A DNA stretch of 64,000 nucleotides from an uncultured Desulfobacteraceae bacterium (GCA_964442705.1 CAYUAQ010000003.1:102-64101), one strand, 5' to 3'; positions 43,285-59,451 are shown, numbered from the stretch's first letter. Numbers and translations: made by a program. The notes: a model not told the origin generated them from the letters alone.

Positions 43285-44844
43285 TCAGACGCCGGGCGAC
43301 AGCAGCGCGTCGACCTTGCGGAGCAGGTCTTCCATTTTTATGGGCTTGAAAAACACATTGGTGAACCCCAGCTGGGCGGCTTCGTCCAGTTTGGGATGGC
43401 CCGGAAAGCCGGTGGTCAACAGCACTACCATGCCGGCCAGTTCCGGGGTGTTGCGTATGGTGCGGCAGACCTCCAGGCCGTCCATGTGGGGCATGAACAT
43501 GTCCAGGATGAGCATGTCCGGCCGATAGGACCCCAGTTTGATGCAGGCCTCCACGCCGTTGGCGGCCTCGTCCACCACGTAGTCGCGTTCACGGGTCAGT
43601 GTGGTCGTCAGCAGTTCGCGGTTCCACTTTTCGTCGTCCACGATGAGGATGCGGGCGCCGCGGGTCTTGCGTTTGGACGGAAAGGAGACCTTGAAGACCG
43701 TACCGTGGCTGGCACGGCTTTCAAAACGGATATCGCCGTCGTGGGCCTTGGTCAGGCTGTAGGTCACGGCCAACCCCAGACCGGTGCCGCCCTCGTGCAG
43801 CCGATCGGTGACGAAGGGGTCGAAGATCTTGTTTTCTATGGACGGAGCGATTCCCCGGCCGTTGTCGCGGACGTGCAGGAAGATGCGGTCGCCGTGAGCA
43901 TCGAAGCCGGTGCGGATATCGATACGGCCGTCGGCACGGTCGATGGCCTGCACGGCATTGAGCACCAGGTTGAGAATGATCTGCTCGATGTTGTGCTGGT
44001 TGCCCATGATGCGGGGAAGATCCGTGCCCAGTTCCAGGTTGACGGCCACCCCGGCGGTGTTGATGGACGGCTGGGCCAGCCGCATGGCATTGTTGACGGC
44101 CTCGTTGATCTGAACCGGCTCGATGTCCGTTATTTCCGTTTTTTTGGAAAAATTCTTGAGATCCGTGATGATCTTGCTGATGCGCGTGGCCGCAATACCC
44201 ATGTCGTGGTGCATCTGGCCGATGTTGCCTGCCAGGAACCGATAGCTGAGACCGCCGTATTTCCGCTGCGCATCGGCTTTTTCGGTTTCCGCCAGGATGG
44301 GCAGCACGTCCCGCCACACCTTCTCGAGCAGGTTGATGTTGAAGGTAATCAAATTGATGGGGTTGTTGATCTCGTGGGCCATGCCGGCCACCATGGTCCC
44401 CAGAGCCTCCATTTTCTGGGTCTGCTGCAGGTGGCTTTCGATGCGCCGGCGGTCGGTCTCGTCGGTAAACGCCAGGTAGTGGTAATCGCGTTCGCCGATA
44501 CGCACCCGCCGGGCGAAGACAGAGGTGTTGATGATGCGGTCACCCCGCACTTTCAGGGAGAGCTCCCAGTTGCTCAAGGTGCCGGCCCGGTTCAGCGCCT
44601 CGATCAGGCGTGCCCGGGAGTCTTCGGCATACAGCTCCAGTTCGGTGACGGTTCTGCCCCCGATCTCGTCGGCGGTGTAGCCGGTCAGTTCACAGAAGCG
44701 GTCGTTGAAGATCTCCAGGCGATGCGACGCCACGTCGGCCAAGGCAATGGCCTGGGGGACCAGGTTGAAAAGCTGGTGGTAGTCCGGGAAAAGCGCCTGC
44801 TCCACCGCGAGGGGGGCTGGATCTATGGCTGATGGCTTGTCCAT
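43285..44844 (-). CDS. Hybrid sensor histidine kinase (PAS + HisKA + HATPase + C-terminal receiver)
   Basis: 519 aa. H-box AHEINNPIN, N/G boxes (NLVLNAVQA, DNGRGI, GTGLGL), receiver ILIVDDE...D...K. Confidence 0.9.
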   Translation of the reverse strand: MDKPSAIDPAPLAVEQALFPDYHQLFNLVPQAIALADVASHRLEIFNDRFCELTGYTADEIGGRTVTELELYAEDSRARLIEALNRAGTLSNWELSLKVRGDRIINTSVFARRVRIGERDYHYLAFTDETDRRRIESHLQQTQKMEALGTMVAGMAHEINNPINLITFNINLLEKVWRDVLPILAETEKADAQRKYGGLSYRFLAGNIGQMHHDMGIAATRISKIITDLKNFSKKTEITDIEPVQINEAVNNAMRLAQPSINTAGVAVNLELGTDLPRIMGNQHNIEQIILNLVLNAVQAIDRADGRIDIRTGFDAHGDRIFLHVRDNGRGIAPSIENKIFDPFVTDRLHEGGTGLGLAVTYSLTKAHDGDIRFESRASHGTVFKVSFPSKRKTRGARILIVDDEKWNRELLTTTLTRERDYVVDEAANGVEACIKLGSYRPDMLILDMFMPHMDGLEVCRTIRNTPELAGMVVLLTTGFPGHPKLDEAAQLGFTNVFFKPIKMEDLLRKVDALLSPGV

Positions 44845-44925
44845 GGCGGTCTCAGAAATTCCATCCGTTCCTTACACCATCGCCGCTTTTTTTTCAAATA
44901 CGGAAAAGTTTTTTTCAAAAAAGCT

Positions 44926-44952
44926 TAAAGTTATTCCGCCAAAGTACGATGA
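44926..44952 (+). promoter_or_regulatory. Possible sigma-28 promoter for flagellin
   Basis: TAAAGTTA-N11-TACGATGA. Good -35, but only 5/8 match in the -10. Implies a leader of about 145 nt. Confidence 0.35.
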
Positions 44953-45104
44953 AAGAACTCAAAGGCAATTTTTTCGTCGGAAAGGAGGCCCAGAAAAAAG
45001 ACGACAGCCGAGAACGACACATCCAGTCAACAGCCGATGTTATCGGCGCCATTCAGACGGTCGGCAGAAGGCCGATCGCAAAACCTTAGAAAAGGAGAAA
45101 TAGC

Positions 45105-45914
45105 ATGTCTTCGATTACCCTGACTTCCGGAATGCGGCAGAACCTTTTTGCGCTTCAGAAAACCTCCTCCCTGATGGAGCAGACCCAGAGCCGGCTGGCC
45201 ACGGGCAAGAAGGTCCAGAGCGCCCTGGATGACCCCATCAACTTCTTCGCGGCCCAGAACCACCAGCAGCGCGCCGACGACCTGGCCTTTCGCAAGGATG
45301 CCATGAGCGAGGCCATTCAGACCATCAAGGCCGCCGACAACGGTATTTCGGCCATTACAGATTTGATCGCCGCCGCCAAGGCGACGGCCCAGTCGGCCCT
45401 GTCGACGTCGGATACCACCGAGCGAGCAAGTCTCGCCACGCAGTTTGATGGGCTGCTCGATCAAATCGATTTTCTGGCTTCAGATTCAGGCTACAAGGGC
45501 ATCAACTTCTTGAACAATGAATCGATGACGGTGGCATTTGACGCCGAAGGTGATAGCACCATTTACCTGGAAGGGTTCGCGGGAAGCTCTGGCGGGCTGG
45601 CGATTGATGATGCTACTAATAGTTGGGCGGATGCCGCTAATATTGAAGCCGCAATCGACGATCTGGACACTGCCAAGGATACGCTGCGCACCGAGTCCAA
45701 GGAACTGTCCAACAACCTGAGCGTCATCACCACGCGCCAGGACTTCACCACCAAGATGATCAACACCCTGGAAGACGGTGTGGCCAACCTCACCAACGCC
45801 GACATGAACGAGGAGGGGGCCAACATGCTCATGCTCCAGACCCGCCAGGCACTGGGGACCACCTCCCTGAGCCTGGCCTCCCAGGCGGCGCAGTCGGTCC
45901 TGAGGCTGTTTTAG
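45105..45914 (+). CDS. fliC: Flagellin (short, alphaproteobacterial-like type)
   Basis: 269 aa. N-terminal LTSGMRQNL...L..Q..LATGKKV.SA.DDP. C-terminal NMLMLQTRQALGTTSLSLASQAAQSVLRLF. Confidence 0.95.
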   Translation: MSSITLTSGMRQNLFALQKTSSLMEQTQSRLATGKKVQSALDDPINFFAAQNHQQRADDLAFRKDAMSEAIQTIKAADNGISAITDLIAAAKATAQSALSTSDTTERASLATQFDGLLDQIDFLASDSGYKGINFLNNESMTVAFDAEGDSTIYLEGFAGSSGGLAIDDATNSWADAANIEAAIDDLDTAKDTLRTESKELSNNLSVITTRQDFTTKMINTLEDGVANLTNADMNEEGANMLMLQTRQALGTTSLSLASQAAQSVLRLF

Positions 45915-45951
45915 TATAGAACCCTGAGGGCTTGCTTATCGGCAGTTCGTC

Positions 45952-45978
45952 AATCGGGGGAGAAAACCTCCCCCGATT
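45952..45978 (+). terminator. Strong hairpin after flagellin (11-bp perfect stem, no U-tract)
   Basis: AATCGGGGGAG-aaaac-CTCCCCCGATT, 38 nt after the flagellin stop and 13 nt before the AGGAGG RBS of the next ORF. Confidence 0.4.
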
Positions 45979-46003
45979 GAAGCCTTCCTCAGGAGGTGAC
46001 ACC

Positions 46004-46678
46004 ATGATTCCGTCAGATTTGAGTATCCAGCAAAACAATTTTCTTTCTACCAGTCGATCCTCGGGGATTGAAACAGCCGAACAGTCGCGTGCCGACGTCA
46101 AGGAGGGAAATTCTCCGGATGTTCATAAACGCAATCCTGACGGCTGGGTCAAGATCGATCGCAGCGGCTTCCCTTTCAGCAACAGGCAGGCATCGACTTC
46201 GAATTTGAATTCCGTCGCCCGCACGATCCGGCGGGCGGACGAAACCATGCAGGAAATCGGCCGGCACATCGACGACATGAAGAGCCGGCTGCAAACCCAC
46301 GTCAAGAATTACCCGCCTTTTCCTCCCGGCAGCGAAGAGCGCGTGAAGATGCTGAAGAGCTTCTCGGCCTTCCGCAGGCTCATCGACGATCTCACTGTTC
46401 CCCCCGACGACGATTCCGCGGCCAGGATAATGAATTCCGCCCCTGCCTGGGATGGGGGAATAGTTGTCGAGCACAAGGGATTTGCGAAAACCATCCACAG
46501 CCAGCCCGTGGGTACGGGGCCGGACGGGATCGACATCCCGCGGCTTTCTGAGGCTGCCACCGACTCGGATTTCCAATCTATGATTGGGAAACTCGAAAAT
46601 GCCGCCAGGACCCTCGAATCCCGAAGGGCTGGATTGCAGGCCGATGCCAACGGTATTTTCAATCCGCCCGAAGCCTGA
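46004..46678 (+). CDS. Hypothetical protein between flagellin and flbT
   Basis: AGGAGG RBS 8 nt before the ATG at 46004. 224 aa. No family recognised. Confidence 0.55.
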   Translation: MIPSDLSIQQNNFLSTSRSSGIETAEQSRADVKEGNSPDVHKRNPDGWVKIDRSGFPFSNRQASTSNLNSVARTIRRADETMQEIGRHIDDMKSRLQTHVKNYPPFPPGSEERVKMLKSFSAFRRLIDDLTVPPDDDSAARIMNSAPAWDGGIVVEHKGFAKTIHSQPVGTGPDGIDIPRLSEAATDSDFQSMIGKLENAARTLESRRAGLQADANGIFNPPEA

Positions 46679-46709
46679 ATCAACCCATATTAACCAGGGG
46701 GCTTATTTC

Positions 46710-47099
46710 ATGGCACTGAAAATTACACTGAAACCCCGCGAACGCATGGTTATCGGTGGCGCGGTGATCGCCAACGGTGATTCCCGCAGTCAGTTCACCA
46801 TCGAAAACCGTGTGCCGGTTCTGCGGGAGCCCGACATCATGGCAGAGGAACGCGCTGACTCCCCGGCCCGGCTAATCTATTTCGTGATTCAGCTGATGTA
46901 CATCGATTCCGAGCACCAGTCGGTATACTACGACAGCTACTGGCGCGTGGCCCAGGAACTCGTAAAGGCGGCGCCCTCCACCGTGGCCTTCATCGATCCC
47001 ATCAGTGAGTACATACTCAGCGACCGCTACTACCTGGCCTTGAAAATGGCCAAAAAACTCATGGCCTACGAAGAGGAGGCGCTCAACCGTGTACAGTAA
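46710..47099 (+). CDS. flbT: Flagellar biosynthesis repressor FlbT
   Basis: MALKITLKPRERMVIGGAVIANGD...VLRE.DIM...PARLIYF..QLMYID parallels Caulobacter FlbT as recalled. Confidence 0.85.
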   Translation: MALKITLKPRERMVIGGAVIANGDSRSQFTIENRVPVLREPDIMAEERADSPARLIYFVIQLMYIDSEHQSVYYDSYWRVAQELVKAAPSTVAFIDPISEYILSDRYYLALKMAKKLMAYEEEALNRVQ

Positions 47100-47466
47100 C
47101 GTGTTGAAGACTTACGAGAGCGTTGACAAAAACACCATGTCCGGCCGGGAAACCGAGGCCCGGGTGCTCACCAAGGCGGCTCTGAAGCTGAAGCAGTGCC
47201 AGCAGGGGTGGGATGAACCCGATCGGGATGACCGCCTGGATGAAGCCCTGAAGTACACCCAACGCATCTGGAGCATATTTCAGGCCGAGCTTTCCAAGCA
47301 GGAAAACCCTCTGCCCACGGCCCTCAAACGGGACCTCCTGCGGCTGAGCGCTTTCATCGACAAACGCATCTTTGAAACCATGGCTTTTCCCGCCCCGGAA
47401 AAGCTGAACATCCTGATAGACATCAACCGCAATATTGCAGCGGGATTGAGGGAGTCAGCCGGATAG
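47089..47466 (+). CDS. flaF: Flagellar biosynthesis regulator FlaF
   Basis: 125 aa, GTG start overlapping the flbT end. ...TEARVLTKAA...RIWSIF...LP..L...L..LS.F......IDINRNIAAGL fits FlaF. Confidence 0.85.
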   Translation: MYSNVLKTYESVDKNTMSGRETEARVLTKAALKLKQCQQGWDEPDRDDRLDEALKYTQRIWSIFQAELSKQENPLPTALKRDLLRLSAFIDKRIFETMAFPAPEKLNILIDINRNIAAGLRESAG

Positions 47467-47575
47467 ACTGAGTCGTTAAAGACAGGGAAAGACACCACAG
47501 CGGTATTTCCTTTTGGAAAAACCGCTGTTTTGATTTCGTAAGGAGAATAGCGGGCACTGCGCCACCGGGGCCTGT

Positions 47576-50500
47576 TCACCTCTCATAGGTTCCTGTCTTG
47601 GGATACACATCCCCCTGCCCGGCACATTTGGCATACAGTTTCAAAACTTCTTTGTCAGCGTGCTTGCTGTCGATGGCGGCTTCCGCCAGGGCCTTGGCGA
47701 ATTCGGGTCTGCCGGAATCCAGAAGCCCCTTGGCCAGTTCATGGCAACGGATGGCGAGCCCGGGACCGATGGCTGTGCGTGACAGTTTGTCAAGTAGCGC
47801 CATGGCTGTTTCCTTGTTTCCTGCGGCACAGTTGGCCGCCGCCAGCAGGAATTGTGCCGGAAGATATTCCGGCAGCCGCCCACAGAGCTTTTCCAGCGAC
47901 GCCAGGGCCTGCTCCGGGTATCCCAGGTGAAGCTTGGCCAGGGCGAAATGGTAATGTCCCTCCTTGGAGTCCGGGAGCAACGCCAAGGCCTTTTCCGCTG
48001 TTTCCAGCACCTTGTCGAAACGGCCCAGGCTGCAGTAGGAGATCCCCAGGTAGATGTAAGCCCTTGGCTCGTGGGGCGCTTCTGCAATATAACGATGCCA
48101 GAGTTCCACGGCCTCGGCATGTTTTTTCAATATTTCGGCCTGAACGGCGAGTTCTCTCAAGGCCACGGGTGCACAGCCAGTCTCATTAAGTTTCTGACGG
48201 CCAATCTGGTAGTACATTTCTCCTTTCTGAGTGGTTTTCCGGCGGTCTAGTTTTCCATAGTGGTGTATCTGAAGATGGCATGGTTTCATTGCTATACCGG
48301 CCTTTTTCAGGGAAGGTTCCACCATTTCGTGCACCGGAAAATCAAACCGAATGGCAGGATCATTCGGGAATATACGGATCTTGGCGCTGGGCGTCCATCC
48401 TGTTCCGGCCTCAACTTTTCCATAGCGGCCTTCATTGGCCTCCCAGAGGACCATATTGCTGTCGAGAGTGTAGTTGCGGGTGTTGACGACAAACGCCTGT
48501 CTGCGGCGTGACGACTGACGGCACAGGCGTCTGAAAAGACCGTATTCCAGGGGCGACAGCGCCTCGTCGGCATCCATGACGAAAATCACTTCTCCCCTCG
48601 CCAGGGACAGTGCGTGATTGCGGGCCGCCGCAAAATCACCGCTCCAGTCGAAGGTGTCGACACGGGCACCGAAAGCCCGGGCGATGTCCGGGCTGCGGTC
48701 GGACGACCCGGTGTCCACCACGATGATTTCATCGACCACGGGCTTTACGCTGGAAAGGCACTTTGCCAGATATTGCTCTTCGTTTTTTACGATCATGCAC
48801 AGGGACACCAGGCCGCGTGATGTTGTGTTTTCCTTTTCAGTGGTGCCCAACTTTTCCCGCAATTTGAGCGCCGTAGCCAGGATGCCGTCTTCGACACCGA
48901 AATCAGCCATGGCCGCTTCGATTTCACCCATGGCTTCAGAATAAGCCTGCAGGTGAAGGAGAATGTCAATACTCATGTAACGGATTTTTTTGCTGTGAGG
49001 ATAGGCAGCCGCCCCCTCTTCGACAATGGGGCGGGCCCGTTCATAGGCATTCAATTGGGAAATGGCGTTGTGATAGGCCGAGGCGATGTCATGGTCGGCC
49101 GGGGAAAGGATGAAGCCGTTCTCGTATAAGTCGAAGGCGGTTCTTTGGTCCCCGGCCTCCCCGTGAAGCATGGCAAGGTTGGTGTGCGCCTCTCCAAAAC
49201 CGGGGTCGGCTTCCAAGCTGCGCTGAAACCATTTGCTGGCGGCATCCATGTCGTTTTTTCCCAGGGCCAGCACGCCTTGAATGTTGAGCACGGAGGGGTG
49301 ATGCGGGGCCACCAGCAGCGCTTCTGCCGCCAGTTTGCAGGCCTTTTCGTTATGGCCCAGACCGGCCTCGCAGACCACAGCCATTACCAGTGCGGATACG
49401 TCCTGCGACTCTCGCGGCATCTCGCTGAGCACATGAAGAGCGTCTTCAAACTGACGCGTCTGTATCAGCATAGCGGTAAGGGCGAGATATCCGTGGCGTC
49501 GGCCGGGCAGCAGGCCAATGGCCTTCAGGAAGAGATCTCCAGCCTCATGAATGCGTTCGGCCTGCCAGGCCTTTATGGCGTCTGTTTCCATTGACAGCAC
49601 CAGGCGTTTCTTACCTTCCACGCTTTGGCCGTCTGTTCCGCTCCACTTGAGGTTAAAATATTTTTTACTGCGCCCGGGCAGATTTCTCATCCGGCGGTGA
49701 AGATAGACGTCGCCGGCGATGAAATTCTGATACCCATTTAGCGCTGCCCGCAGACAGAGGTCTTCGGCCTCATATCCGCCTTCACCCACCTCTTCATCGA
49801 AGACGCCTATGTCTTCGATGAGTTCCCGTCGCATGAGCAGACAGAATCCATCGACGGTTTCACTCGCAATGCGGCGGTGGCGGTTGCGTCGATGAAACTC
49901 TGCGGAAAAATCCGTCAGCGGCCCCATGGTGTGGTTCCAGCAGCAAGGTGTTTCCTGGCGGGATTCGGCGGCGTTGGACATGGCGCCGATCACCCCGGCA
50001 TTGGAAGCGCAATTGAAGTGACTGCACATTGCTGCGAGCCAGCCTGGCGTTACTTGCACGTCATTGTAAAGCCTGAGGATGAATTCCCCCCGGCTGGCAG
50101 CGATCCCGACATTAAAGGCTGCCGCCATGCTGGTTCCGGATTCGCAGGACACCTGACGGCAAAGCTCATTTTTTTTGAGGTAGCTCCGGAGCCATTTTGC
50201 AGATCCCTTGGCCATTCCGTTGTCGATAATGATGATTTCGTGGCGTTCGGAAGTGTGCCGATCGACGCTTTCTAAGCATCGACGCAGCTGTTTCACAGGA
50301 CCTGCGGCCGGAATCAGGATGGATATCAGCGGCGGATGGTTTAACCCGGTTTCGGCGACTGCTCCAGGGGCCAGGGTTGTCTTGCTTTCGCTTTTCCCGG
50401 AAAGAGATGGTCGTGAACCGGCGTCGGAGCGCCCGGAAGTGTTTTCCGGCGCATTTTTCGAACTTTCCAACCGTTCCAAGTACTGGCGGGCATCGTCATT

Positions 50501-53500
50501 GCCGGGGTCCATGGCCAGAAGCCGCCGGTAATACGCTGCGGCTTCATCCAGCTGGTTCAGCGCCAGGCTGATATGGCCGGCCATCAGCAGGAGCCCCGTA
50601 TCCCGCGGGCGTTTGTTGACAAGGTCTCTATAGATAGCAAGGGCTTCCCTCTTACGGTCAAGTTCCACCAGAGTAAAGTCAGCCAGGTTTTTCTGGAAAT
50701 GCGGATTGTCCGGCGCAAGGTGTACGGCTCTGACATAGTGCCTTCTAGCCTTATCAATGGCACCTGCCTCGTGATAGAGCACAGCCAGGTCGTTGTGAGC
50801 CATGGCGAAATCGGGAAAAGCCGCTATAAAAGCCGTGATTTTTTCGATGGCACTGCCGGCCGGATCATTCTCGAGGGTCGACAGAAGCTCGGTATACATG
50901 GACTCGGCTGCCGGCGCGACCGCCGCTTTTTCTGGCTCAGGGCGAGTGATTTGCAGGCTTTCTAAAGCCGTGCGATTGTTGGGGTCGACTTTCAGCACGC
51001 GTTCATAGAAACTGTGGGCATCATCTAGGCGTTCGAGCCGGAGACAGATATGGCCCATGGCCAGAAGGGCTTCGGTGTCGAAGGGGTCTTTATTGAGAAC
51101 GCCGACATAGATGCCCATGGCTTTTTCGATCTCTCCAAGGGCCACGCAGTAAAAGTCCGCCAGGTTTTTCTGGTAAACCGTATTTTCGGGGTCGATTTCC
51201 ACCGCTTTGCGGTAGGAGGCGAGGGCGTCCTCGCGTTCGCCGCGGTGGTGGTACAGTACCCCGAGGTCGTTGTATGCCGGGGCAAAAAGGGGAGAATCCT
51301 TCGTCAACTCCACAAGCTTTTCAACCGCTTCGTCGTGCTTCTGCGACCGGACAAGTCGCTGTATGCCCTGATATCTGGATTGCACCATCTCTGTGGGCGC
51401 AGTGGCGGCAGCAGGTTTACGCTCCAGCGCTTGGCGGCGGTTGATGATTTTGCCTGCGGAACGGGCCGTGTTGTACATCTCGAAGATGCGTCGATTCTCT
51501 TCAGCCTGGCGGTTGCGGTTGGAGTGCTCGATGCTGCCGGGTGATTTCAGGTAAAGGCCCAGCAGTACGGGGATATGCAGAAACGTTCTGGTTTGGGATA
51601 TGCGCAGCCAGAATTCATAGTCGCCGGAAGTGACGAATGACCCATCGAAATATCCATATTCGTCATGGATCTCCCTTCGCCACATGGGCTGCGGGCCGAC
51701 AAAGCATCCCTTGCTGAGCAGGTCGTCGCGGTCGAAATTCATCCAGCGATAGAATCCCACCGGCGTGCAGTGTTCGAAGCGCTCGTTTTCGGTTTCAGTA
51801 ATGATCACATCTGCGTAAACCAAGCTGATTTCGGGAAGCGTTTCCAGAATGGTGCTCATTACCTCGAAGGCGTCTTTGCGGTGCCGGTCATCGGTGTTGG
51901 CATTGGTGACGTACTTGCCGCGGGCTGCTTTTATGCCGCGATTCCAGGCGGCATAGACCGTTTCGCGCTTTTCGGTGCGAAGGTATTTGATGTTGCCATA
52001 GCGCTGTTGAAACTGCCGTATGATTGTAGATTCTTTCTGCTGGGAGCCGCTGTCAACAACGATGATTTCGAGACGTTTGGCGATGGTCTGATTTTCCAGA
52101 TCTTCCAGGCAGCCGCGGATGAGGTTCTCGGCGTTGTAGGTGGAAACAATGGCAGAAATCAGGGGGGGGACATCAGGAAACGAACGCGAGATGCGATCAC
52201 CGTTTTTGATCTTCTTTCCCCAGTCAATATCCCAGATATCCAGATCAGAAAAATAATCAAGGCCATATTCATTGAACCAATTTAGAACTTGGGTTTCGCG
52301 CCAGTGGTCTGGCAGGTTATATCTCGATTCATCGAAGAACATATATCCAGCAAACCACTCTGCAGGGGCAGGCTTTAGCTTTAAATTGTTTTCATCCTTG
52401 CTGGGGGCATAAAGCGCATTTATTTTTTCGGTTGATTTGCCAGGCTCTCGAATACGTTCCAGACAACGATACCAGCTTTGTTTAATAAGAAGGTTCCGCC
52501 AGTTTACAAACTGGAAATGAAGCAGGCCGAATGTGTATCCGGGAATGACTTTCAACCTGCCTGAAAGGCTTTGCGGGATACGGGGGGTATGTATGAAAGC
52601 GGATTCATAGGAACACTTGCCATCGTCGCAGAATATTATACCCTTGTAATTGTTAGTCCAGACAGAGTCGTCAAAACGATAGTTATGTACACTCCGCCAC
52701 AGCTGAATCCATACCAGCGATATCCGCTCACCCGGTTGTAATTCCAGAATTTTATGTCGTAAGAAATTGTTTTTTGCGCAATTTGCGGTGAACATTTCAT
52801 CTGCGTCAATCACAATGAAGTGGGTTCCCCCTATTTTTCTGCCATACTGCAGAATCCTATTTCGATCACCTGGTTCGTCTCGATGCCATTTGTCTTTTTT
52901 GATTATGGCCTCAATGTTACAATCGTTCGCCAGATTTTTTACAATTTCGACGGTGTTGTCTTCAGAAGCGTCATCAAGGAAGACAATTGCATCGGTATAA
53001 AGGGAAAGTGAACGCAAGCATGGCTCAATGATATTGGCTTCATTCCGGGCCGTAACCAAACCGACTATTTTTTTGGTTCTATATGCTGATCTTTTATTTT
53101 TCTTTTCCGACTGGGACATCGTAAGTCTTATGTCATTGTGGGCCCTTGTCTGGCTTGCAGTAGAAGTTGGTCTGCCAGAAGTTTTCAAAAGAGGCGCCAT
53201 CAATTCAACGTCAATGGTATCTTTTTTCTCGCCCCGATTGGTTTTCATTTGACTTAAAGCACGCAGTGAAACAAATTTGAGCCCCTCGTAATAAAAGTGC
53301 TGGTGGGGGTTAAATATAATATCGTCAATGGTGGTATCGTGATATTTTATTTCGGAATTATGGCTACCGATTTCGGCCTCATTTCGATACAAGATATTTT
53401 CATAACCGTAATGCAAGTAATCGATATCGCGTGCCGGACGAATGCCATACACGGCCATCGTGGAGCTGCCGTCGATGCAGAAACATTCCTTGTCAACGCC

Positions 53501-55804
53501 ATTGGCGCTCAGAAACTTGTTGTATTCGTCAAGCAGGACGTAAAACTTTTCGAAATGTTTCAGCTGGGCATTATTAAGGAAATGGAGGCTGTTTTCGTTA
53601 AAGAATATTTGGGCTAAACGAACCGTTTCCTCGTGGGTATCATTGATATGTACCGAATGGTTGCCGACGCCAAAGAGTTGCCGTATGTCTTCTTTGCATT
53701 GCTTAATATGATTCAGGCTATTGGCTTCAACTAAAAACACCCGAACAGGCCCGGCGCCACGAAAACATTGCTCCGCTTTGTGTTTGGCTCCCCTGAACAG
53801 TGTGGACCAATTGCCCAACCAGTTTTCCCCCCTGTACATTTGTTTAATCAACAGATGCGGACCATTGTTGTGAAGGTGGACATCTTTGCTATAAAAAATG
53901 TCCGCATGCCTGCGAATAATCTGCAGCACTTTGCTTACTTTGCCTTCGGCAGTGGGAAAAACGGTTATTATATACGTATTTTTCTTTATTTTGCTGTATT
54001 CATACGCCATTGCATCGGCGTATGAACTGTCCAGTTGACGATCCCGGAAAAAGGTATAGTTGTATGAATTGGTATCACGGTTGAAGCAAGCCACGCGGAC
54101 ATTTTTCTTCAAGAGACAACCCAACGCCAGGCGGTGACTGCCGTCAATAATCGTCATGTCGCTTCCCACGGGTATAAGGGATCTTGCCTCATTAAACCCT
54201 TCCGCCATAAACGACCGGCATAATTCGTGAAATGAAGAAAGAAAATCCTCTGCAGATACTTTGCCTGAGCCGTCAGACTCAAAAAAGCCATTCAACGCAT
54301 ACAGATGAGCAAGATATAATTGTCGCCCCCAGTTGCTTTGTAGTTTCAATAAATGAAACCGTCCATAGATGATTTTTGCCATTACATCAAATCGGCAGGT
54401 GTTTATCAGGGAGGTGGGGTCGACGGTTTGAATTTTAACAAGCCCCTTTTTCGGCAAATAATTAATGTTGAAAAGATGTGGATTTATTTTTGAGCGAATC
54501 TCCTCGATTTGAAGCTGTTTCGAATCGTTAGCGCCCGGAAGATTCGTCGTCCCGTGATCATGCCGTACCGACGGAATGTCCGCAAAAAATAGATCCTGAC
54601 GATTATCATAAACCACAGAATATCCGTGCAAAGAAAGCAATTCGATAATATCGTCTCTGCGACCACCATATTCCACAACAATTAACTGGGGTTTGTACTT
54701 TTCAAAATCCAGCCCTTCCAGGACTTCGAAATCGTGTCCTTCGGCGTCAATAGAAAGTAAATCTATATCCGTCAGATTGTTTTCAGCCAGGATCTCCGTT
54801 AATTTTTTTACTTGCACTTTTTCTTTTGTCCACTGGGCACCGTATTTACGGGTCCACCGCTCGGTTTCAGCTGGATCAAGCGCGGAGACGTCGCTGCCCC
54901 ACTCTGGCAGATGCGGATAGGTGGACACATTCATTTCAGCCGTTCCGTTGCGATTGGAAACCGCCACTTGAATGCATTTGACATTTTTCCCTAAATAGGA
55001 ACGACGCAACTTTTCAAAATTTTTTTTGATCGGCTCTACACAAAGCCCCTGCCAGTCATATTTTTCCACAAGACGTCGAACGTTACTATAGTGCTTTCCA
55101 TCAAAAGCCCCCACCTCCACAAAGACCATGTTGCGGGGCTTTCGCTCGGAGAAATACTGCTCGATGAATTCATCCTGCCCCAGTTGAGCGTAATACCCTC
55201 TGGCGTGCTTGGGAAGTTCTCGCGCAAACCAAAATTCTCTATTAAGGGCGAGAACCTTTCTGCAGGCCTCTTCAACCAGCCTGACATTTCCCAGTTTTTC
55301 CGCAAGCAGCGCGACAAGCCATGCGGCCTTCCATTTTTTGGCCTGAAGAGCGGAAAAGGCTTCCGCCATTTCAAGTGTTTTTTCCAAAAGATGGCGTGGG
55401 AATTGTTTTGTCAGCCGGGATTGAAAAACACCTATGGCGTCATCCAGGTGTGAGGTAAGATACTTGCGGAAAGCTTCCGGCTCTTTCGGTAACTGAGAGG
55501 TCAGCAGGAAATAAAACATCGTCTCCCCCGACGACCGGTCTAACTTCAGCGATGTCCTGAAAAACGATGAAGCGGCGGATAACTCGTCTCTGATTAGCAG
55601 TATCCGCCCGAGATTGAAATTGGCACGCACATTCTGCGGATTTTCCGCCAATAGATGGGAACATTCTGCATAAGCGGAATCGAGTTCACCACAAAACAGA
55701 TGATGTTCGATGCGTTCATGGCGTGCCGTCAATTTTCTATTCTTGGTCATTATGGTCCCTTTAAGGAGAGAAATGTTTACAGGCGCTGTTCGGGTGGTCA
55801 TCAT
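47576..55804 (-). CDS. Giant multidomain protein: TPR + FkbM methyltransferase + ParB/NTase-like region + 4 x GT2 glycosyltransferase + interleaved TPR blocks
   Basis: Uninterrupted 2,742-codon ORF. Motifs read from the translation: VEVGAFDG (FkbM), IIDGSHRLA, GS-x12-DID, four GT2 cores (LDDASEDNT/DADE; VVDSGS/NTDD; IIDNG/EAED; VVDTGSSD/DADE), many TPR repeats. An alternative start at M19 (55750) is possible. Confidence 0.85.
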   Translation of the reverse strand: MMTTRTAPVNISLLKGTIMTKNRKLTARHERIEHHLFCGELDSAYAECSHLLAENPQNVRANFNLGRILLIRDELSAASSFFRTSLKLDRSSGETMFYFLLTSQLPKEPEAFRKYLTSHLDDAIGVFQSRLTKQFPRHLLEKTLEMAEAFSALQAKKWKAAWLVALLAEKLGNVRLVEEACRKVLALNREFWFARELPKHARGYYAQLGQDEFIEQYFSERKPRNMVFVEVGAFDGKHYSNVRRLVEKYDWQGLCVEPIKKNFEKLRRSYLGKNVKCIQVAVSNRNGTAEMNVSTYPHLPEWGSDVSALDPAETERWTRKYGAQWTKEKVQVKKLTEILAENNLTDIDLLSIDAEGHDFEVLEGLDFEKYKPQLIVVEYGGRRDDIIELLSLHGYSVVYDNRQDLFFADIPSVRHDHGTTNLPGANDSKQLQIEEIRSKINPHLFNINYLPKKGLVKIQTVDPTSLINTCRFDVMAKIIYGRFHLLKLQSNWGRQLYLAHLYALNGFFESDGSGKVSAEDFLSSFHELCRSFMAEGFNEARSLIPVGSDMTIIDGSHRLALGCLLKKNVRVACFNRDTNSYNYTFFRDRQLDSSYADAMAYEYSKIKKNTYIITVFPTAEGKVSKVLQIIRRHADIFYSKDVHLHNNGPHLLIKQMYRGENWLGNWSTLFRGAKHKAEQCFRGAGPVRVFLVEANSLNHIKQCKEDIRQLFGVGNHSVHINDTHEETVRLAQIFFNENSLHFLNNAQLKHFEKFYVLLDEYNKFLSANGVDKECFCIDGSSTMAVYGIRPARDIDYLHYGYENILYRNEAEIGSHNSEIKYHDTTIDDIIFNPHQHFYYEGLKFVSLRALSQMKTNRGEKKDTIDVELMAPLLKTSGRPTSTASQTRAHNDIRLTMSQSEKKNKRSAYRTKKIVGLVTARNEANIIEPCLRSLSLYTDAIVFLDDASEDNTVEIVKNLANDCNIEAIIKKDKWHRDEPGDRNRILQYGRKIGGTHFIVIDADEMFTANCAKNNFLRHKILELQPGERISLVWIQLWRSVHNYRFDDSVWTNNYKGIIFCDDGKCSYESAFIHTPRIPQSLSGRLKVIPGYTFGLLHFQFVNWRNLLIKQSWYRCLERIREPGKSTEKINALYAPSKDENNLKLKPAPAEWFAGYMFFDESRYNLPDHWRETQVLNWFNEYGLDYFSDLDIWDIDWGKKIKNGDRISRSFPDVPPLISAIVSTYNAENLIRGCLEDLENQTIAKRLEIIVVDSGSQQKESTIIRQFQQRYGNIKYLRTEKRETVYAAWNRGIKAARGKYVTNANTDDRHRKDAFEVMSTILETLPEISLVYADVIITETENERFEHCTPVGFYRWMNFDRDDLLSKGCFVGPQPMWRREIHDEYGYFDGSFVTSGDYEFWLRISQTRTFLHIPVLLGLYLKSPGSIEHSNRNRQAEENRRIFEMYNTARSAGKIINRRQALERKPAAATAPTEMVQSRYQGIQRLVRSQKHDEAVEKLVELTKDSPLFAPAYNDLGVLYHHRGEREDALASYRKAVEIDPENTVYQKNLADFYCVALGEIEKAMGIYVGVLNKDPFDTEALLAMGHICLRLERLDDAHSFYERVLKVDPNNRTALESLQITRPEPEKAAVAPAAESMYTELLSTLENDPAGSAIEKITAFIAAFPDFAMAHNDLAVLYHEAGAIDKARRHYVRAVHLAPDNPHFQKNLADFTLVELDRKREALAIYRDLVNKRPRDTGLLLMAGHISLALNQLDEAAAYYRRLLAMDPGNDDARQYLERLESSKNAPENTSGRSDAGSRPSLSGKSESKTTLAPGAVAETGLNHPPLISILIPAAGPVKQLRRCLESVDRHTSERHEIIIIDNGMAKGSAKWLRSYLKKNELCRQVSCESGTSMAAAFNVGIAASRGEFILRLYNDVQVTPGWLAAMCSHFNCASNAGVIGAMSNAAESRQETPCCWNHTMGPLTDFSAEFHRRNRHRRIASETVDGFCLLMRRELIEDIGVFDEEVGEGGYEAEDLCLRAALNGYQNFIAGDVYLHRRMRNLPGRSKKYFNLKWSGTDGQSVEGKKRLVLSMETDAIKAWQAERIHEAGDLFLKAIGLLPGRRHGYLALTAMLIQTRQFEDALHVLSEMPRESQDVSALVMAVVCEAGLGHNEKACKLAAEALLVAPHHPSVLNIQGVLALGKNDMDAASKWFQRSLEADPGFGEAHTNLAMLHGEAGDQRTAFDLYENGFILSPADHDIASAYHNAISQLNAYERARPIVEEGAAAYPHSKKIRYMSIDILLHLQAYSEAMGEIEAAMADFGVEDGILATALKLREKLGTTEKENTTSRGLVSLCMIVKNEEQYLAKCLSSVKPVVDEIIVVDTGSSDRSPDIARAFGARVDTFDWSGDFAAARNHALSLARGEVIFVMDADEALSPLEYGLFRRLCRQSSRRRQAFVVNTRNYTLDSNMVLWEANEGRYGKVEAGTGWTPSAKIRIFPNDPAIRFDFPVHEMVEPSLKKAGIAMKPCHLQIHHYGKLDRRKTTQKGEMYYQIGRQKLNETGCAPVALRELAVQAEILKKHAEAVELWHRYIAEAPHEPRAYIYLGISYCSLGRFDKVLETAEKALALLPDSKEGHYHFALAKLHLGYPEQALASLEKLCGRLPEYLPAQFLLAAANCAAGNKETAMALLDKLSRTAIGPGLAIRCHELAKGLLDSGRPEFAKALAEAAIDSKHADKEVLKLYAKCAGQGDVYPKTGTYER

Positions 55805-55823
55805 TTAACCCCATTTTGCACTT

Positions 55824-55839
55824 TGCAAAACACATGCCA
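55824..55839 (-). promoter_or_regulatory. Sigma-54 promoter for the giant ORF
   Basis: Minus strand reads TGGCAT-GTGTT-TTGCA (GG-N10-GC). Only about 10 nt of leader before ATG 55804, or about 64 nt if M19 is the start. Confidence 0.7.
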
Positions 55840-56090
55840 TGTTTAAAAGGGGAAAAATCATAAAAAAACAATCAGTTATAGATTATTAGGGTATAGGAAT
55901 CGTATCAATGACCGTCAAATTACTGACGGTTTAGATGAACCCCTTCCCAGCGGTGGCGTGATTTCAGCAAAATACAGGCAAGGCCGTCTCTTTGCTTATA
56001 GAAAATCCTGGCCCAGGCGATAAATTGGTCGTATCAGAGAGGAAGCGGGACAGTAGCCACGGAATCAAAACAACCATCGTACGGTTGCCC

Positions 56091-56117
56091 TCAAGAACTC
56101 CCACCACTTGCCGATAA
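56091..56117 (+). promoter_or_regulatory. Possible sigma-28 promoter for the TPR gene
   Basis: TCAAGAAC-N11-GCCGATAA. Perfect -10, weak -35. Confidence 0.45.
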
Positions 56118-56148
56118 TGAACACAGCGCAAAGCAGAAAGCATTGAAC

Positions 56149-57336
56149 ATGGACATCATCGGTATCAGCAATCCGGACAACCTTTTCAGTGCCACAGTGG
56201 TGCAGTCGCAACAACTGGAGGCGATGGCCAACGATGCGCTCAAGAGCGGCATCGACCGTTACATGCGCCAGGACTACAAGGGGGCCATCGCCGAGTTTCA
56301 GCGCTCGCTGGGGTTGTCCCAGGGCTCCGGCTATGCCGTGGATGCGGCCAATTACATGGCCAGGGCCTACATGGCGCTGGGTGACAGCGAGCGGGTGATA
56401 GCGTCCTATGAGACCGCCATTCGCCTGGCTCCCTTGCGTGACGACAGCCACATCAGCCTGGGCAATTTTCTTTATGCCGAGGAACGGTACGAAGAAGCCG
56501 CGCGAGCCTATGAGCAGGCCGTCAAGCTGAATCCGTCTGCCAACAACCGATTCGCATTGGGTCAGGCCTTCATGCAGACCGGGCGCTACGACGATGCCGA
56601 GCAGCAGTTCAGCGAAGTGTCCCGTCTCGAGCCCACCAAGCCCAACGGCAGCTACGGTCTGGGGCTCACCTACAACCGGCAGGGACGTTATGAGGATGCC
56701 ATACGCGCATTTGAACGCGCCATCAGTCTGGACAGCCGTTTCTACGATGCCTATGCGGAAATGGGTTATGCTTACGCGAATTTAGGGCAAATGGACGATG
56801 CCCAGCGGCAGGTGGATTTCCTGGAGCTGGTGGCGCCGGAACTGGCCGGCAACCTGAGCGGGTACATGTACAAAGCGGATCCCCCCAAATTCAGTTTCGC
56901 CTATACCACCGATTTCAGCTATACCATGCCCATGAGGACGTCATTGGCGGCGCTGGACTCCTACCTGGCGGCAGCCAACGCCGAAAAGACCTTTACCATG
57001 AAGTTCCAGTTCGACAAGGAAATGGATCGGGAGTCCGTGCAGAATGTCTTCAACTGGCGCATCGGGCGGTCGACCGGCAGTGGGCCGGGAGAGGCATACA
57101 ATTACGGATTTCAGGTTCCCGACACAGAAGTGCGATTGTCGCCTTTTCCCGATCAGGTGATTTATGACGCTAGAACCATGACCGCCACGGTCTACTTTAC
57201 CATCCGCCAGAATGCCGACGCCGACGGCACCCTCGACCCTTCCCATATCGAATTCCAGTTCAAGGGCAAAGACGAATTCGGCCACCCCATGGACACGGAT
57301 GCCGATCAGTTCAGCGGCTTTTCAGGGGTTGCCTGA
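56149..57336 (+). CDS. TPR-repeat protein with beta-rich C-terminal domain
   Basis: About 5 TPR units in the N-terminal 230 aa. The C-terminal 160 aa are rich in beta-strand-like segments. Divergent from the giant ORF. Confidence 0.8.
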   Translation: MDIIGISNPDNLFSATVVQSQQLEAMANDALKSGIDRYMRQDYKGAIAEFQRSLGLSQGSGYAVDAANYMARAYMALGDSERVIASYETAIRLAPLRDDSHISLGNFLYAEERYEEAARAYEQAVKLNPSANNRFALGQAFMQTGRYDDAEQQFSEVSRLEPTKPNGSYGLGLTYNRQGRYEDAIRAFERAISLDSRFYDAYAEMGYAYANLGQMDDAQRQVDFLELVAPELAGNLSGYMYKADPPKFSFAYTTDFSYTMPMRTSLAALDSYLAAANAEKTFTMKFQFDKEMDRESVQNVFNWRIGRSTGSGPGEAYNYGFQVPDTEVRLSPFPDQVIYDARTMTATVYFTIRQNADADGTLDPSHIEFQFKGKDEFGHPMDTDADQFSGFSGVA

Positions 57337-57556
57337 GCACCGGGGGATTTTGCCGCTGAACGAGCCGCCGTTCTCCGTCTGGCGTTTTCTTTTTGGTATA
57401 GCATCGTTTTCTTGAATGCCGCTCTTCGAATGCACCTCCTGCCTGAAAAAGCACTAATGCGGCATCCTAATCCAGGTGGATCAATGGTACATGACCGGCT
57501 GGATTCCGACTTTCCATTGACCAAGCCAGGGCCGCTCTGATGTGAAAATTCTTCAT

Positions 57557-57579
57557 TTGCAAATTGCAGATTGCAAAAA
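57557..57579. repeat. Heptamer tandem array TTGCAAA-TTGCAGA-TTGCAAA
   Basis: Read directly. A second array, TTGCGAT-TTGCAAA, is at 57831-57844 and a third, TTGCACT-TTGCAAA, at 55816-55829. Confidence 0.85.
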
Positions 57580-58044
57580 TGGACCAGGTGGACCGCAGGT
57601 AGTACCTATAACGGCATCTATTTCTGTGTTTAACTTATTGAATTAAAAGAAAATTAATAGTGACCGAGAGAGGATTGGCGTAATCGCGGTGAAAAAATAG
57701 TTTTCGAGATCAGGCTAATTGTCGGTAAGTTCGCTCGGTAAATACATCTTCACCCTGATAAAATAGTATTTAACCTACTGTTTATTCAAATAATATTTAC
57801 ACTTTAGCCTCCCGGCGCCGGTAGTATCCGTTGCGATTTGCAAAAACAGGCATGGTAGGCGTTGTACTGGCTCCTGAAAAAATACCAAAAAAAATGTTTC
57901 CGTGTGGAAATTTGAGGCCGAGAGCTCAACTACACCATGAAGTATTTGAAACCAGCGGGCACCCCTTCATCTTGAATATCTTCCAAAATTGACATGCCGC
58001 GACATTCCCCGTTGCCGTCCCTGAATCCACGAGTGGAGCAGGGA

Positions 58045-58060
58045 TGGCATTTTTTTTGCT
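58045..58060 (+). promoter_or_regulatory. Sigma-54 promoter for the receiver-less activator gene
   Basis: TGGCAT-TTTTT-TTGCT (GG-N10-GC), 129 nt upstream of the ATG at 58189. Confidence 0.75.
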
Positions 58061-58188
58061 AAATATTGGGGGCGAAATGCCGGTCACAGCTTCCTGGCGG
58101 GACGGCAGGAGAAATCACCGGCTGTTCCCCAAGCACTGCAAAGCCCAATTGAACGCAAAACCTGAGCTCACCACGGAGGAAGGCAGAC

Positions 58189-59247
58189 ATGTATTCAGTT
58201 GCAATTGAGCGGGAACCGGAATTCGCAGGCATTGAAGGGATCAATCTCGTCGCGCGGGAATTTACTTCCAGCAACTACTGTTTCGAAGGCATCGTCGGCC
58301 AGAGCCACGGCATGCGGAAAGTCTTCAAGACCGTCGAGAGGGTGGCCGACAGCGACTCGACCATCGTCATCAGCGGCGAGACCGGTACGGGAAAGGGGTT
58401 GGTGGCCAGGGCCATCCACAACCGCTCCTATCGTCGCGACAAACCTTTTGTCCAGATAAACTGCGGTGCCATTCCGGAAAACCTGCTGGAGAGCGAACTC
58501 TTCGGTCATGAGAAGGGGGCCTTTACCGGGGCGACCGCCGCCAAAAAGGGAAAATTCGAGGCTGCCAACGGCGGTACGATATTTCTCGATGAGATCGGCG
58601 ACATGAATATGGAGCTGCAGGTCAAGCTTCTGCGGGTGCTTGAAGAGTGCCAGTTTGAACGCGTCGGCAGCTGCACCACCATCAATGTGGATGTGCGCAT
58701 CATCGTGGCCACACATCGGGATCTGGAGTCCGCCGTGGCCGAAGGCCGTTTCCGACAGGATCTGTACTACCGGCTGTTCGTGATCCCCATCGTGCTGCCC
58801 CCGCTGCGGGATCGGCACAACGACATTCGTCTGCTGGCAGCGCACTTTATCAACCAGCTCAGAAGAGAAAAGCGGTCTTCCATCGAGGCGTTCTCCAGGG
58901 AGGCCCTCGAACGGTTGTCGCGTCATGATTGGCCCGGCAACGTCAGGGAGCTGAAAAACCTGGTGGAGCGGCTGGTGGTGCTGAACGACGGCCCGCGTAT
59001 CGAAGCATCGGATCTGCCCTCGTCTGTCCTGTCTTCAGCCAGCAATGCCGGCAGCCTCCCTTCCCTGGAGATTTCCGACGAGGGGATTTGCCTGAGTACC
59101 GCCGTAAACGAATACGAAAAAGCCCTGATTACCCAGTCTTTGGAAAAAAGCAAGTGGGTAAAGAAAAAAGCCGCTGAACTGCTGCACGTCAAAAGAACTA
59201 CACTGGTCGAAAAAATCAAACGCCACCAGCTGCAGCCCGCCACCTGA
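58189..59247 (+). CDS. Sigma-54-dependent transcriptional activator without a receiver/sensory domain (AAA+ + Fis-type HTH only)
   Basis: 352 aa. The AAA+ core starts about 40 aa from the N-terminus (GQSHGMRKV...GETGTGKG...GAFTGA). C-terminal AAELLHVKRTTLVEKIKRH. GGAGGAAGG RBS. Confidence 0.9.
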   Translation: MYSVAIEREPEFAGIEGINLVAREFTSSNYCFEGIVGQSHGMRKVFKTVERVADSDSTIVISGETGTGKGLVARAIHNRSYRRDKPFVQINCGAIPENLLESELFGHEKGAFTGATAAKKGKFEAANGGTIFLDEIGDMNMELQVKLLRVLEECQFERVGSCTTINVDVRIIVATHRDLESAVAEGRFRQDLYYRLFVIPIVLPPLRDRHNDIRLLAAHFINQLRREKRSSIEAFSREALERLSRHDWPGNVRELKNLVERLVVLNDGPRIEASDLPSSVLSSASNAGSLPSLEISDEGICLSTAVNEYEKALITQSLEKSKWVKKKAAELLHVKRTTLVEKIKRHQLQPAT

Positions 59248-59435
59248 AAAAAACCAGGTGTCAAAGAACTGACAGAAACTTTCTTTGGCCCTTGACATCT
59301 GGGGGCTCTGCATCCTCTTTCCCTCCTTTTTTGCGGGTTTTGCCAGGCAATCATGACGACCTGGTATCTTTTTAAACATATTAATATCAAATGGTTGCGT
59401 TTATTTACGCTGTTTTCTGGCGAAATGCCCGGTTG

Positions 59436-59451
59436 TGGCAAAGGATTTGCA
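59436..59451 (+). promoter_or_regulatory. Sigma-54 promoter for the response-regulator activator gene
   Basis: TGGCAA-AGGAT-TTGCA (GG-N10-GC), 113 nt upstream of the ATG at 59564. Confidence 0.75.

Follow-up and report, generated by a model that had tools for sequence, protein, structure and literature searches.

Glycosylation of flagellin has consequences for motility, for the assembly of the filament and for recognition by phages and hosts. To our knowledge, nearly all studies of it concern pathogens, in which the enzymes are small and separate. SunS, a GT-A enzyme with a helical substrate-binding region, acts directly on polypeptide. Here we analysed a giant open reading frame (ORF) near a flagellin gene in 64,000 nucleotides of DNA from an uncultured Desulfobacteraceae bacterium (GCA_964442705.1, CAYUAQ010000003.1:102-64101; the whole stretch is called the window). 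It joins an FkbM-type methyltransferase, a module without a name, four glycosyltransferase modules of family 2 (GT2-A to GT2-D) and blocks of tetratricopeptide repeats (TPRs) in one chain. Judged from its sequence, the product is rather likely to be a soluble cytoplasmic multi-enzyme protein, which would O-glycosylate flagellin before export and then elaborate the glycan.

Several described systems come close to this protein. GmaR, the flagellin O-linked N-acetylglucosamine (O-GlcNAc) transferase of Listeria, consists of a transferase domain followed by TPRs that have been proposed to recognise flagellin; with 637 amino acids (aa), one transferase and a C-terminal anti-repressor domain binding MogR it is bifunctional (PMC9638930). 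FlmG, the flagellin pseudaminyl transferase of Caulobacter (596 aa), has an N-terminal TPR domain, for which flagellin binding was shown, and a C-terminal domain of the GT-B superfamily, and FlaF, FlbT and small flagellins are encoded in the same genome (PMC7591256). In Klebsiella pneumoniae O7, ORF6 carries a methyltransferase, a phosphotransferase and two GT2 domains on one polypeptide and makes a methyl-phosphate cap; non-homologous methyltransferase-kinase pairs serve the same role in different serotypes (PMC11231755). The genes PA1088-PA1091 of Pseudomonas aeruginosa and CD0240-CD0244 of Clostridioides difficile are responsible for flagellin sugar-phosphate-methylthreonine glycans, and PA1091 fuses a GT2 to a phosphotransferase (PMC11833859).

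The giant protein is a new, fused and expanded form of this known kind of system, with GmaR as the closest representative. Literature searches on combinations of FkbM, flagellin, TPR and multidomain proteins found no paper on the giant protein family. An earlier note on this DNA had not recognised the layout as described. This holds for the literature searched, yet the layout recurs in sequence databases in more than 60 proteins, and the idea of one chain for several steps has been characterised in O7 ORF6.

Domain order of the giant protein

On the minus strand, 47576..55804 forms one reading frame of 2,742 codons without a stop (ORF listing and translation). It is a single uninterrupted ORF between flaF and a divergent TPR gene, as had been reported, and its end is 1.66 kb away from the flagellin gene. 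The database copy of the protein, P0001, has 2,724 aa and starts at M19; an AAGGGA ribosome-binding site precedes the M19 ATG at 55750, and the first ATG of the 2,742-codon ORF is located about 20 nt from a sigma-54-like element. The features of the gene, in the order of the protein, are:

47576-55750, minus strand: likelier coding sequence, start M19, 2,724 aa
55232..55726, minus: N-terminal helical, weakly TPR-like region, aa 27-191; TPR matches below threshold (24 bits, cut-off 27)
54617..55117, minus: FkbM-type S-adenosylmethionine (SAM) methyltransferase, aa 230-396; PF05050 75.1 bits (cut-off 22.7), TIGR01444 68.7 bits (cut-off 37.7)
53186-54523, minus: unnamed module overall, aa 428-873; a family without Pfam or NCBIfam model
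53987..54523, minus: subdomain 1 of the module, ParB/sulfiredoxin-like, aa ~428-606; AlphaFold2 (AF2) confidence (pLDDT) >90; D-G-x-H-R at aa 554-558
53570..53977, minus: subdomain 2, predicted nucleoside-diphosphate kinase (NDK) fold, aa ~610-745; conserved H719-x-x-D722 and R708
53186..53551, minus: subdomain 3, Pol-beta nucleotidyltransferase (NTase)-like, aa ~752-873; G779-S780 ... D793-x-D795
52205..53071, minus: GT2-A, aa 912-1200, SunS/GmaR-like subtype; PF00535 36.5 bits (aa 917-1011, partial profile), PF13704 32 bits
51455..52165, minus: GT2-B, aa 1214-1450, chondroitin-synthase/SpsA-like, glycan-extending type; PF00535 92.8 bits (aa 1217-1382)
50435..51412, minus: TPR block 1, aa 1465-1790; Pfam TPR families 80-93 bits
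49670..50335, minus: GT2-C, aa 1824-2045; PF00535 68.9 bits (aa 1828-1999); K4CP E-value 1.6e-8
48845..49582, minus: TPR block 2, aa 2075-2320; TPR_19 48 bits, TPR_16 40 bits
48242..48820, minus: GT2-D, aa 2329-2521, homologous to the glycosyltransferase domain of GmaR; PF00535 77.8 bits (aa 2334-2418)
47705..48142, minus: TPR block 3, C-terminal, aa 2555-2700; TPR_19 49 bits, TPR_2 45 bits

The profile scan recovered the FkbM-type methyltransferase above the curated cut-offs of both models and all four GT2 modules above the PF00535 cut-off of 23.3 bits, in agreement with the earlier note. Each GT2 module has an acidic DxD-type motif: D-A-D within VIDADE in GT2-A, TDD in GT2-B, an ND-V variant in GT2-C and D-A-D within VMDADE in GT2-D. 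GT2-A is 50-72% identical among relatives; the Pfam GT2 profile is covered by GT2-A and GT2-D only over its initial ~95 positions. Strong TPR matches were obtained at about aa 1480-1790, 2110-2300 and 2560-2680, but the block proposed for the N-terminus stayed below its cut-off; this weakly TPR-like region is common to the Anaerohalosphaeraceae relatives. For the stretch at aa 421-880, which had been read as ParB- and NTase-like, the scan gave no profile hidden Markov model (HMM) match.

TPR block 1 is a tandem duplication of a unit of ~160 aa, the halves of which are 40% identical (E-value 1e-35). Following an N-terminal cassette of FkbM, unnamed module and GT2-A, the chain is built of three units in which a GT2 module precedes a TPR block (B/TPR1, C/TPR2 and D/TPR3), and it ends ~40 aa past the last TPR. 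No transmembrane segment was predicted in the giant protein (maximum KD19 1.23). Because there is no hydrophobic segment, the protein is taken to be soluble and cytoplasmic, and a membrane-bound polysaccharide synthase was ruled out.

Comparison with described glycosyltransferases

GT2-D is homologous to the transferase of GmaR. It matched PDB 22ao with an E-value of 2.9e-25, and the alignment (10-202 with 7-180) covered the whole glycosyltransferase domain, VMDADE of GT2-D being aligned with AIDADE of GmaR. With the homologous transferase the giant protein shares the transferase-then-TPR order, the location among flagellar genes and the cytoplasmic nature without a membrane segment. It differs from GmaR in its size of 2,742 aa, four transferases, the methyltransferase and the three-subdomain module. 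The linker and anti-repressor region of GmaR found no counterpart in a PDB search with aa 2320-2742, which matched the 204-aa GmaR transferase chain and generic TPRs, not the crystallised GmaR 141-637. A MogR gene was not among the scanned neighbours.

SunS was matched by GT2-D with an E-value of 5e-10 and by GT2-A with 1.3e-5; the GT2-A match with GmaR had an E-value of 6e-3. There is also a match to the SunS-family model TIGR04195, but at 83.7 bits versus a family cut-off of 350, and no gene for a glycocin precursor or a Cys-rich peptide was seen near the giant gene. The two middle transferases are of another type. GT2-B and GT2-C resemble the glycan-extending enzymes K4CP, GalT1 and SpsA, with an E-value of 7.7e-21 for GT2-B against the chondroitin synthase K4CP.

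FlmG, which had been offered as the comparator, turned out to be an analogue and not a homologue. Both proteins follow the logic of a TPR domain for flagellin binding, which is a proposed role in the giant protein, fused to a glycosyltransferase, and a cytoplasmic location and the presence of FlaF and FlbT are common to them. However, all transferases of the giant protein are GT-A/GT2 and stand ahead of their TPR blocks, and no GT-B, GT1 or GT4 family was among its Pfam matches. Genes for pseudaminic acid were absent from the window ORFs scanned. Membership in the FlmG family was rejected on account of the different fold and the opposite domain order.

The succession of FkbM, unnamed module, GT2-A and GT2-B matches the order of domains in O7 ORF6, one of the WbdD/WbdA-type polymerase-terminators. 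ORF6 has a class-I CgnL-like methyltransferase, an AmiN-like kinase, a carbohydrate-binding module and a coiled-coil ruler, and its lipid-linked glycan is exported by an ABC transporter. In contrast, the giant protein has a methyltransferase of the FkbM type, ParB-like, NDK and NTase-like folds in the middle and TPRs between the modules; genes for a Wzm/Wzt transporter or an initiating transferase were not among the neighbours scanned. Considered as a methyltransferase-kinase pair, it has a methyltransferase, although of another family, and a middle module with predicted nucleotide-binding-type folds whose kinase activity is unproven. PA1088-PA1091 and CD0240-CD0244 likewise combine GT2, phosphotransferase, nucleotidyltransferase and methyltransferase on flagellin, a likeness to the activities proposed for the giant protein. 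They are mostly small separate proteins with a single transferase versus four in the giant protein.

Relatives and linkage to flagellin

The genes that surround the giant gene and recur beside its relatives are:

45105-45914, plus strand: flagellin, 269 aa, the proposed substrate; Flagellin_N 58 bits, Flagellin_C 23.5 bits
46584-47099, plus: flbT, flagellin regulation gene; PF07378 141.8 bits
47089-47466, plus: flaF, faced by the 3' end of the giant ORF; PF07309 115.4 bits (flbT and flaF are regulation and secretion-chaperone genes)
56143-57336, plus: divergent TPR protein, 397 aa, upstream of the giant gene and a conserved neighbour

Ser and Thr make up 20% of the 269-aa flagellin. Beyond the divergent TPR gene follow sigma-54 activators and then flgB/C-fliE-fliF.

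The core of FkbM, unnamed module, GT2-A and GT2-B recurs in more than 60 proteins of 1,500-4,750 aa at 45-70% identity; where they are named at all, they are labelled 'FkbM family methyltransferase'. Exact look-ups of the window protein and of a Geomonas oryzae relative returned no record. Every module is present in P0002, a metagenomic protein of 2,733 aa, at 37-72% identity to the window protein; P0002 differs by a TPR1 placed before GT2-B and an extra segment of ~250 aa after FkbM. Its locus reads TPR gene, giant gene, Fer4, FlaF, FlbT, flagellin, sigma-54 activators and flgBC-fliEF, Fer4 being the sole extra gene.

The arrangement extends to other relatives. The flbT-flaF pair (46584..47466, plus strand, in the window) also flanks relatives at loci L001, L016, L021 and L024, and at the latter three flagellin is found as well. 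Directly upstream of the giant gene of L021 there are genes for an aminotransferase, an epimerase and a methyltransferase, like in a typical flagellin glycosylation island. The verrucomicrobial giants at L013, L019 and L020 have flagellin within 10 kb. In total, flagellin was located within 10 kb at 9 of 47 related genomic loci, far above chance (binomial p between 1e-9 and 5e-4 if the background rate is set at 1-5%), and all these flagellins passed the Pfam flagellin models.

Among the relatives, the N-terminal part of the chain varies. Three 'deltaproteobacterial' giants open with GT10 instead of FkbM (Pfam check: L016 and L021) and have kept the unnamed module and the GT2-C/TPR/GT2-D/TPR tail beside FlaF, FlbT and flagellin. 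The GT10 fucosyltransferase-like N-termini belong to L016:528-6770 and L021:8864-16714 from related metagenome-assembled genomes. Together with the GT10 and GDP-fucose-pathway genes next to a stand-alone module in Neobacillus (L025), these giants suggest a possible link to 6-deoxyhexose chemistry. Most giants have a second FkbM-like domain between the first FkbM and the module (P0006 aa 340-575, P0002 aa 346-596, P0024 aa 296-560), whereas the window protein carries one FkbM domain.

The earlier note had proposed to look for the modules as separate genes in related genomes, and they were found at L041. There, a gene for FkbM, module and GT2-A (1,269 aa) overlaps a 430-aa GT2-TPR gene by 4 nt; the latter is orthologous to aa 1214-1580 of the window protein, i.e. 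GT2-B and the first TPR (43% identity, E-value 1e-92). At L041 and L037 such minimal FkbM-module-GT2A proteins are followed by three tandem flagellins, and at L041 then by fliD.

A relative with other neighbours is found at L003 in a genome of 3.65 Mb; near-identical copies of this relative elsewhere are labelled Kapabacteria. Around it (L003:1-9806, 17353-21975) there are a TonB-dependent receptor gene and genes with sorting tails of the type IX secretion system (T9SS; Por_Secre_tail), and these neighbours hint that in this genome the target, protein or glycan, is another one.

The unnamed module

The unnamed module is a large family of its own without a Pfam or NCBIfam model, and within the giant protein it is the most novel part and the most interesting lead. 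An exhaustive HMMER search yielded 4,087 cluster representatives at an E-value <=1e-3, of which 1,712 were at <=1e-30. On its own the module occurs as a 'hypothetical protein' of 415-520 aa; elsewhere it is fused to FkbM, GT2, GT10, GT25 or polysaccharide deacetylase. Its hosts comprise Desulfobacterota, Verrucomicrobiota, Kapabacteria, cyanobacteria, Bacillota, Chlamydiales, CPR bacteria and DPANN archaea. Stand-alone proteins of ~450 aa are found in bacteria and DPANN archaea (L025:9929-11266, L027, L028, L036, L043); the one in Neobacillus kokaensis (L025) lies between genes of the GDP-mannose pathway and a GT10 fucosyltransferase. Structural relatives in the giant viruses Mimivirus LCMiAC01, Yasminevirus and Catovirus had E-values of 1e-16 to 1e-13, and some are annotated as glycosyltransferases.

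Sequence searches against PDB with aa 421-900 as a single sequence and with profiles of 23 and 52 sequences gave nothing usable, and Pfam and NCBIfam, run on the module and on 23 relatives singly, returned noise plus two weak NDK matches. An AF2 model built on the 23 relatives had a pLDDT of 91.5 and a pTM of 0.90 and showed three subdomains. Thus the two-part ParB/NTase reading of this stretch had missed a predicted NDK-fold subdomain at aa ~610-745 between the two parts.

In subdomain 1 the proposed ParB/sulfiredoxin motif is conserved across relatives, with G555, H557 and R558 invariant in 52 sequences, and in the model D-G-x-H-R is placed at a strand-helix junction, behind strand 124-126 and where helix 136-144 begins. 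Yet the module did not match Pfam ParBc, and the matches to ParB-N/ParB-Srx folds were weak: PDB 5k5d had a probability of 0.25 and BFVD entries up to 0.95, several phage ParB/Srx proteins among them at 0.8-0.95 over 66-81 columns.

Subdomain 2 resembles NDKs in its predicted fold, and where NDKs have the catalytic His loop it carries a conserved His-x-x-Asp and an Arg. Foldseek against PDB gave many NDKs at a probability of 1.0, a TM score (target) of 0.5-0.64 and E-values of 4e-3 to 4e-2, and BFVD also yielded the NDK fold. H719 of the loop N-x-S-x-H-x-N-D hardly varies; D722 of this loop is conserved, and so is R708. In contrast to NDKs, the subdomain is set between two nucleotide-binding-type subdomains and fused to glycan enzymes, and there is no significant sequence match: Pfam NDK (PF00334) did not match the window protein and reached an E-value of 0.12 in 2 of the 23 relatives.

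Subdomain 3, modelled alone, had a pLDDT of 93.5 and presented G-S-x12-D-x-D (aa 779-795) on a strand-helix-strand core. The signature hG[GS]-x9-13-Dh[DE]h is present, and G779, S780, D793 and D795 are conserved among relatives. The 49 PDB matches were mostly NTases (JHP933, TM1012, ANT(2'')-Ia, poly(A) and CCA enzymes) at TM scores of 0.4-0.5. The nucleotidyltransferase signature claimed for this part is a conserved motif, with NTases as main structural neighbours, but Pfam NTP_transf_2 did not match the module and no E-value was significant. Both motif calls, ParB and NTase, appear reasonable at the level of the predicted fold, with weak to moderate support, and are unproven. As a whole the modelled module points to nucleotide-dependent chemistry on glycans.

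Proposed function and alternatives

Starting from the domain identities, the GmaR homology of GT2-D, the conserved synteny and the lack of membrane segments, we infer as follows which substrate and which sugars are involved, how the reactions follow one another and what the unnamed module does chemically. By analogy with FlmG and GmaR, the TPR blocks would hold unfolded or chaperone-free flagellin. The GmaR/SunS-like GT2-D, and possibly GT2-A, may place the first sugar on Ser or Thr, and the chondroitin-synthase/SpsA-like GT2-B and GT2-C would then lengthen the glycan. The unnamed module might perform an NTP-dependent phosphoryl or nucleotidyl transfer, while the FkbM domain presumably methylates, so that both together would produce a capped or decorated glycan. 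Precedents for such caps are the methyl-phosphate of the methyltransferase-kinase O-antigen terminators and the sugar-phosphate-methylthreonine of Pseudomonas and Clostridioides flagellins. The claim of the earlier note that the protein is a flagellin glycosyltransferase with TPR recognition blocks is well supported by the homology of GT2-D, TPRs included, to GmaR and by the recurrent linkage to flagellin, FlaF and FlbT, and remains one that we infer. The absence of genes for lipid carriers or export from the window ORFs scanned also speaks for it.

Several observations weigh against flagellin glycosylation by this scheme. Most members of the wider family are not beside flagellin. Flagella are not known from many of the lineages concerned, namely cyanobacteria, Kapabacteria, Chlamydiales, DPANN archaea and giant viruses, so that the N-terminal cassette is not specific to flagellin. 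Genes for sugar-nucleotide biosynthesis were absent from the window ORFs scanned. Within the module, the ParB-like fold matches of subdomain 1 have non-significant E-values, all PDB matches of subdomain 3 have E-values >=0.1 and probabilities <=0.69, and subdomain 2, aligned to an E. coli Ndk sequence, appears to have another residue in place of the canonical Lys of the NDK 'KPD' motif. Finally, the sigma-54 consensus at two mismatches matched the whole window 82 times, with 82.6 matches expected.

The distribution of the family could also mean that the protein makes a non-flagellar glycan, O-antigen- or capsule-like on a lipid carrier or attached to pilin, S-layer or secreted cargo, with the flagellin gene adjacent by chance or through co-regulation. 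The L003 relative among T9SS-cargo genes fits this, as do the resemblance of GT2-B and GT2-C to polymerising enzymes such as chondroitin synthase and the fact that the closest characterised multi-module layout, O7 ORF6, makes O-antigen. We consider it rather unlikely, however: GT2-D is homologous to GmaR, the flagellin/FlaF/FlbT synteny is kept across divergent relatives and flagellin is enriched overall (the 9 of 47 loci), and neither the gene nor its surroundings yielded an ABC transporter, Wzx/Wzy, an initiating phosphoglycosyltransferase or a membrane segment.

It seems improbable that the giant protein is mainly a regulator or scaffold, the TPR arrays of which would bind flagellar regulators or chaperones such as FlbT, FlaF and the sigma-54 activators, with some of the transferases degenerate. 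The bifunctional GmaR is a precedent, since it is both transferase and anti-repressor, and the gene is positioned between flaF/flbT and several sigma-54 activator genes; yet the anti-repressor region is the part of GmaR that remained unmatched in the PDB search. Likewise, the match of GT2-A and GT2-D to just the first ~95 Pfam positions could indicate degeneration, but the acidic motifs are kept in 4 of 4 GT2 modules, GT2-D aligned with GmaR across the entire catalytic domain, and module identities of 46-72% to P0002, the closest full-length relative, are as expected for enzymes under selection.

If flagellin is indeed glycosylated by the giant protein, one soluble chain would appear to hold substrate recognition, initiation, extension and tailoring in a natural self-contained version. 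It could offer a compact means to rebuild protein O-glycosylation in a heterologous host and to study the division of work among repeated GT2-then-TPR units. The swapping, fusion and splitting of modules at domain boundaries among relatives is informative on the evolution of glycan diversity. The unnamed module, present in bacteria, archaea and giant viruses, unannotated and consistently linked to glycan enzymes, has a predicted structure of high confidence, and its chemistry is directly testable. As a tentative extension, it may found a new, widespread family of nucleotide-dependent glycan-modifying enzymes, possibly sugar kinases with a phosphohistidine at H719 or phospho- or nucleotidyl transferases, which together with the fused FkbM domain could cap protein-linked or polymeric glycans with a group of the methyl-phosphate or a similar type; here it would be part of a single-chain assembly line for the flagellin glycan.

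Mosaic composition

The G+C content at third codon positions (GC3) of the giant ORF is 0.42-0.55 for codons 1 to ~1,200 and 0.60-0.75 thereafter, while neighbouring host genes have 0.70-0.84. The step (52100-52300, codon ~1,200) is at the junction of GT2-A and GT2-B, which is a gene boundary in L041 (L041:12445). Closest relatives are Anaerohalosphaeraceae proteins for FkbM and the unnamed module and P0002 for GT2-A onwards. Similar internal GC3 steps within one ORF are present in L002 and L006. The giant gene looks like a mosaic, a product of module exchange and fusion.

That an assembly chimera or a sequencing error joined two adjacent genes (FkbM-module-GT2A and GT2B-TPR...) at ~aa 1,200 could be argued from the GC3 jump precisely at the L041 gene boundary and from the window protein being known from a single contig, but this was rejected as very improbable because dozens of independent relatives (such as P0002, P0004, P0006, L005 and L008) have GT2-A and GT2-B joined in frame by short linkers, the mosaic GC3 inside one ORF recurs, and 8.2 kb without a stop codon are not expected from a mis-join.

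Candidate sigma-54 control and surroundings of the gene

Upstream of the giant gene lies one element that may control it:

55825-55839, minus strand: sigma-54-type -24/-12 element TGGCATGTGTTTTGC, one mismatch to TGGCAC-N5-TTGC

Comparable elements are found upstream of the relatives in L001 and L032. Because matches in the window occur at the rate expected by chance, the motif count was dropped as statistical evidence, and the element draws its weight only from its position and its recurrence upstream of these two relatives. What had been called a dedicated sigma-54 promoter is plausible as a candidate element. The giant gene would probably be transcribed under sigma-54 control along with the flagellar regulon around it.

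A second sigma-54-like element, TGGCATTTTTTTTGC, was noted at 58045-58059 (plus strand) just upstream of a sigma-54 activator gene. It ends a region of 850 bp (57337-58188; ~48% GC) with no ORF >=80 aa and no Rfam match. Four sigma-54 enhancer-binding proteins are encoded in the 64-kb window (11768-13120, 41860-43263, 58189-59247 and 59435-60937), three of which flank the locus of flagellin and giant gene.

An Rfam scan of 44000-59000 gave no match, and a terminator scan 3' of the giant stop codon gave one weak hairpin and nothing else. Homologues of the divergent 397-aa TPR protein stand beside giants at L001:7782-8972, L016:10092-11321, L032:6704-7954, L006:7136-8359 and L002:6094-7278. In Desulfuromonadales-type genomes this protein is a conserved partner of the giants, even without flagellin within 10 kb; a C-terminal stretch of ~150 residues lies outside its TPR part and gave no Pfam match. 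Between flagellin and flbT there is a putative gene of 248 aa (45932-46678, plus strand; GC3 0.67; no Pfam match), and the corresponding gap of the L001 relative has just ~350 bp. RuvB of the window shares 78-81% identity with proteins of Desulfococcaceae and Desulfonema, which marks the host as an uncultured bacterium of the Desulfobacterales type. The rest of the window is ordinary chromosome with dnaX, sdhA, tol-pal, ruvB, motAB and fliN.

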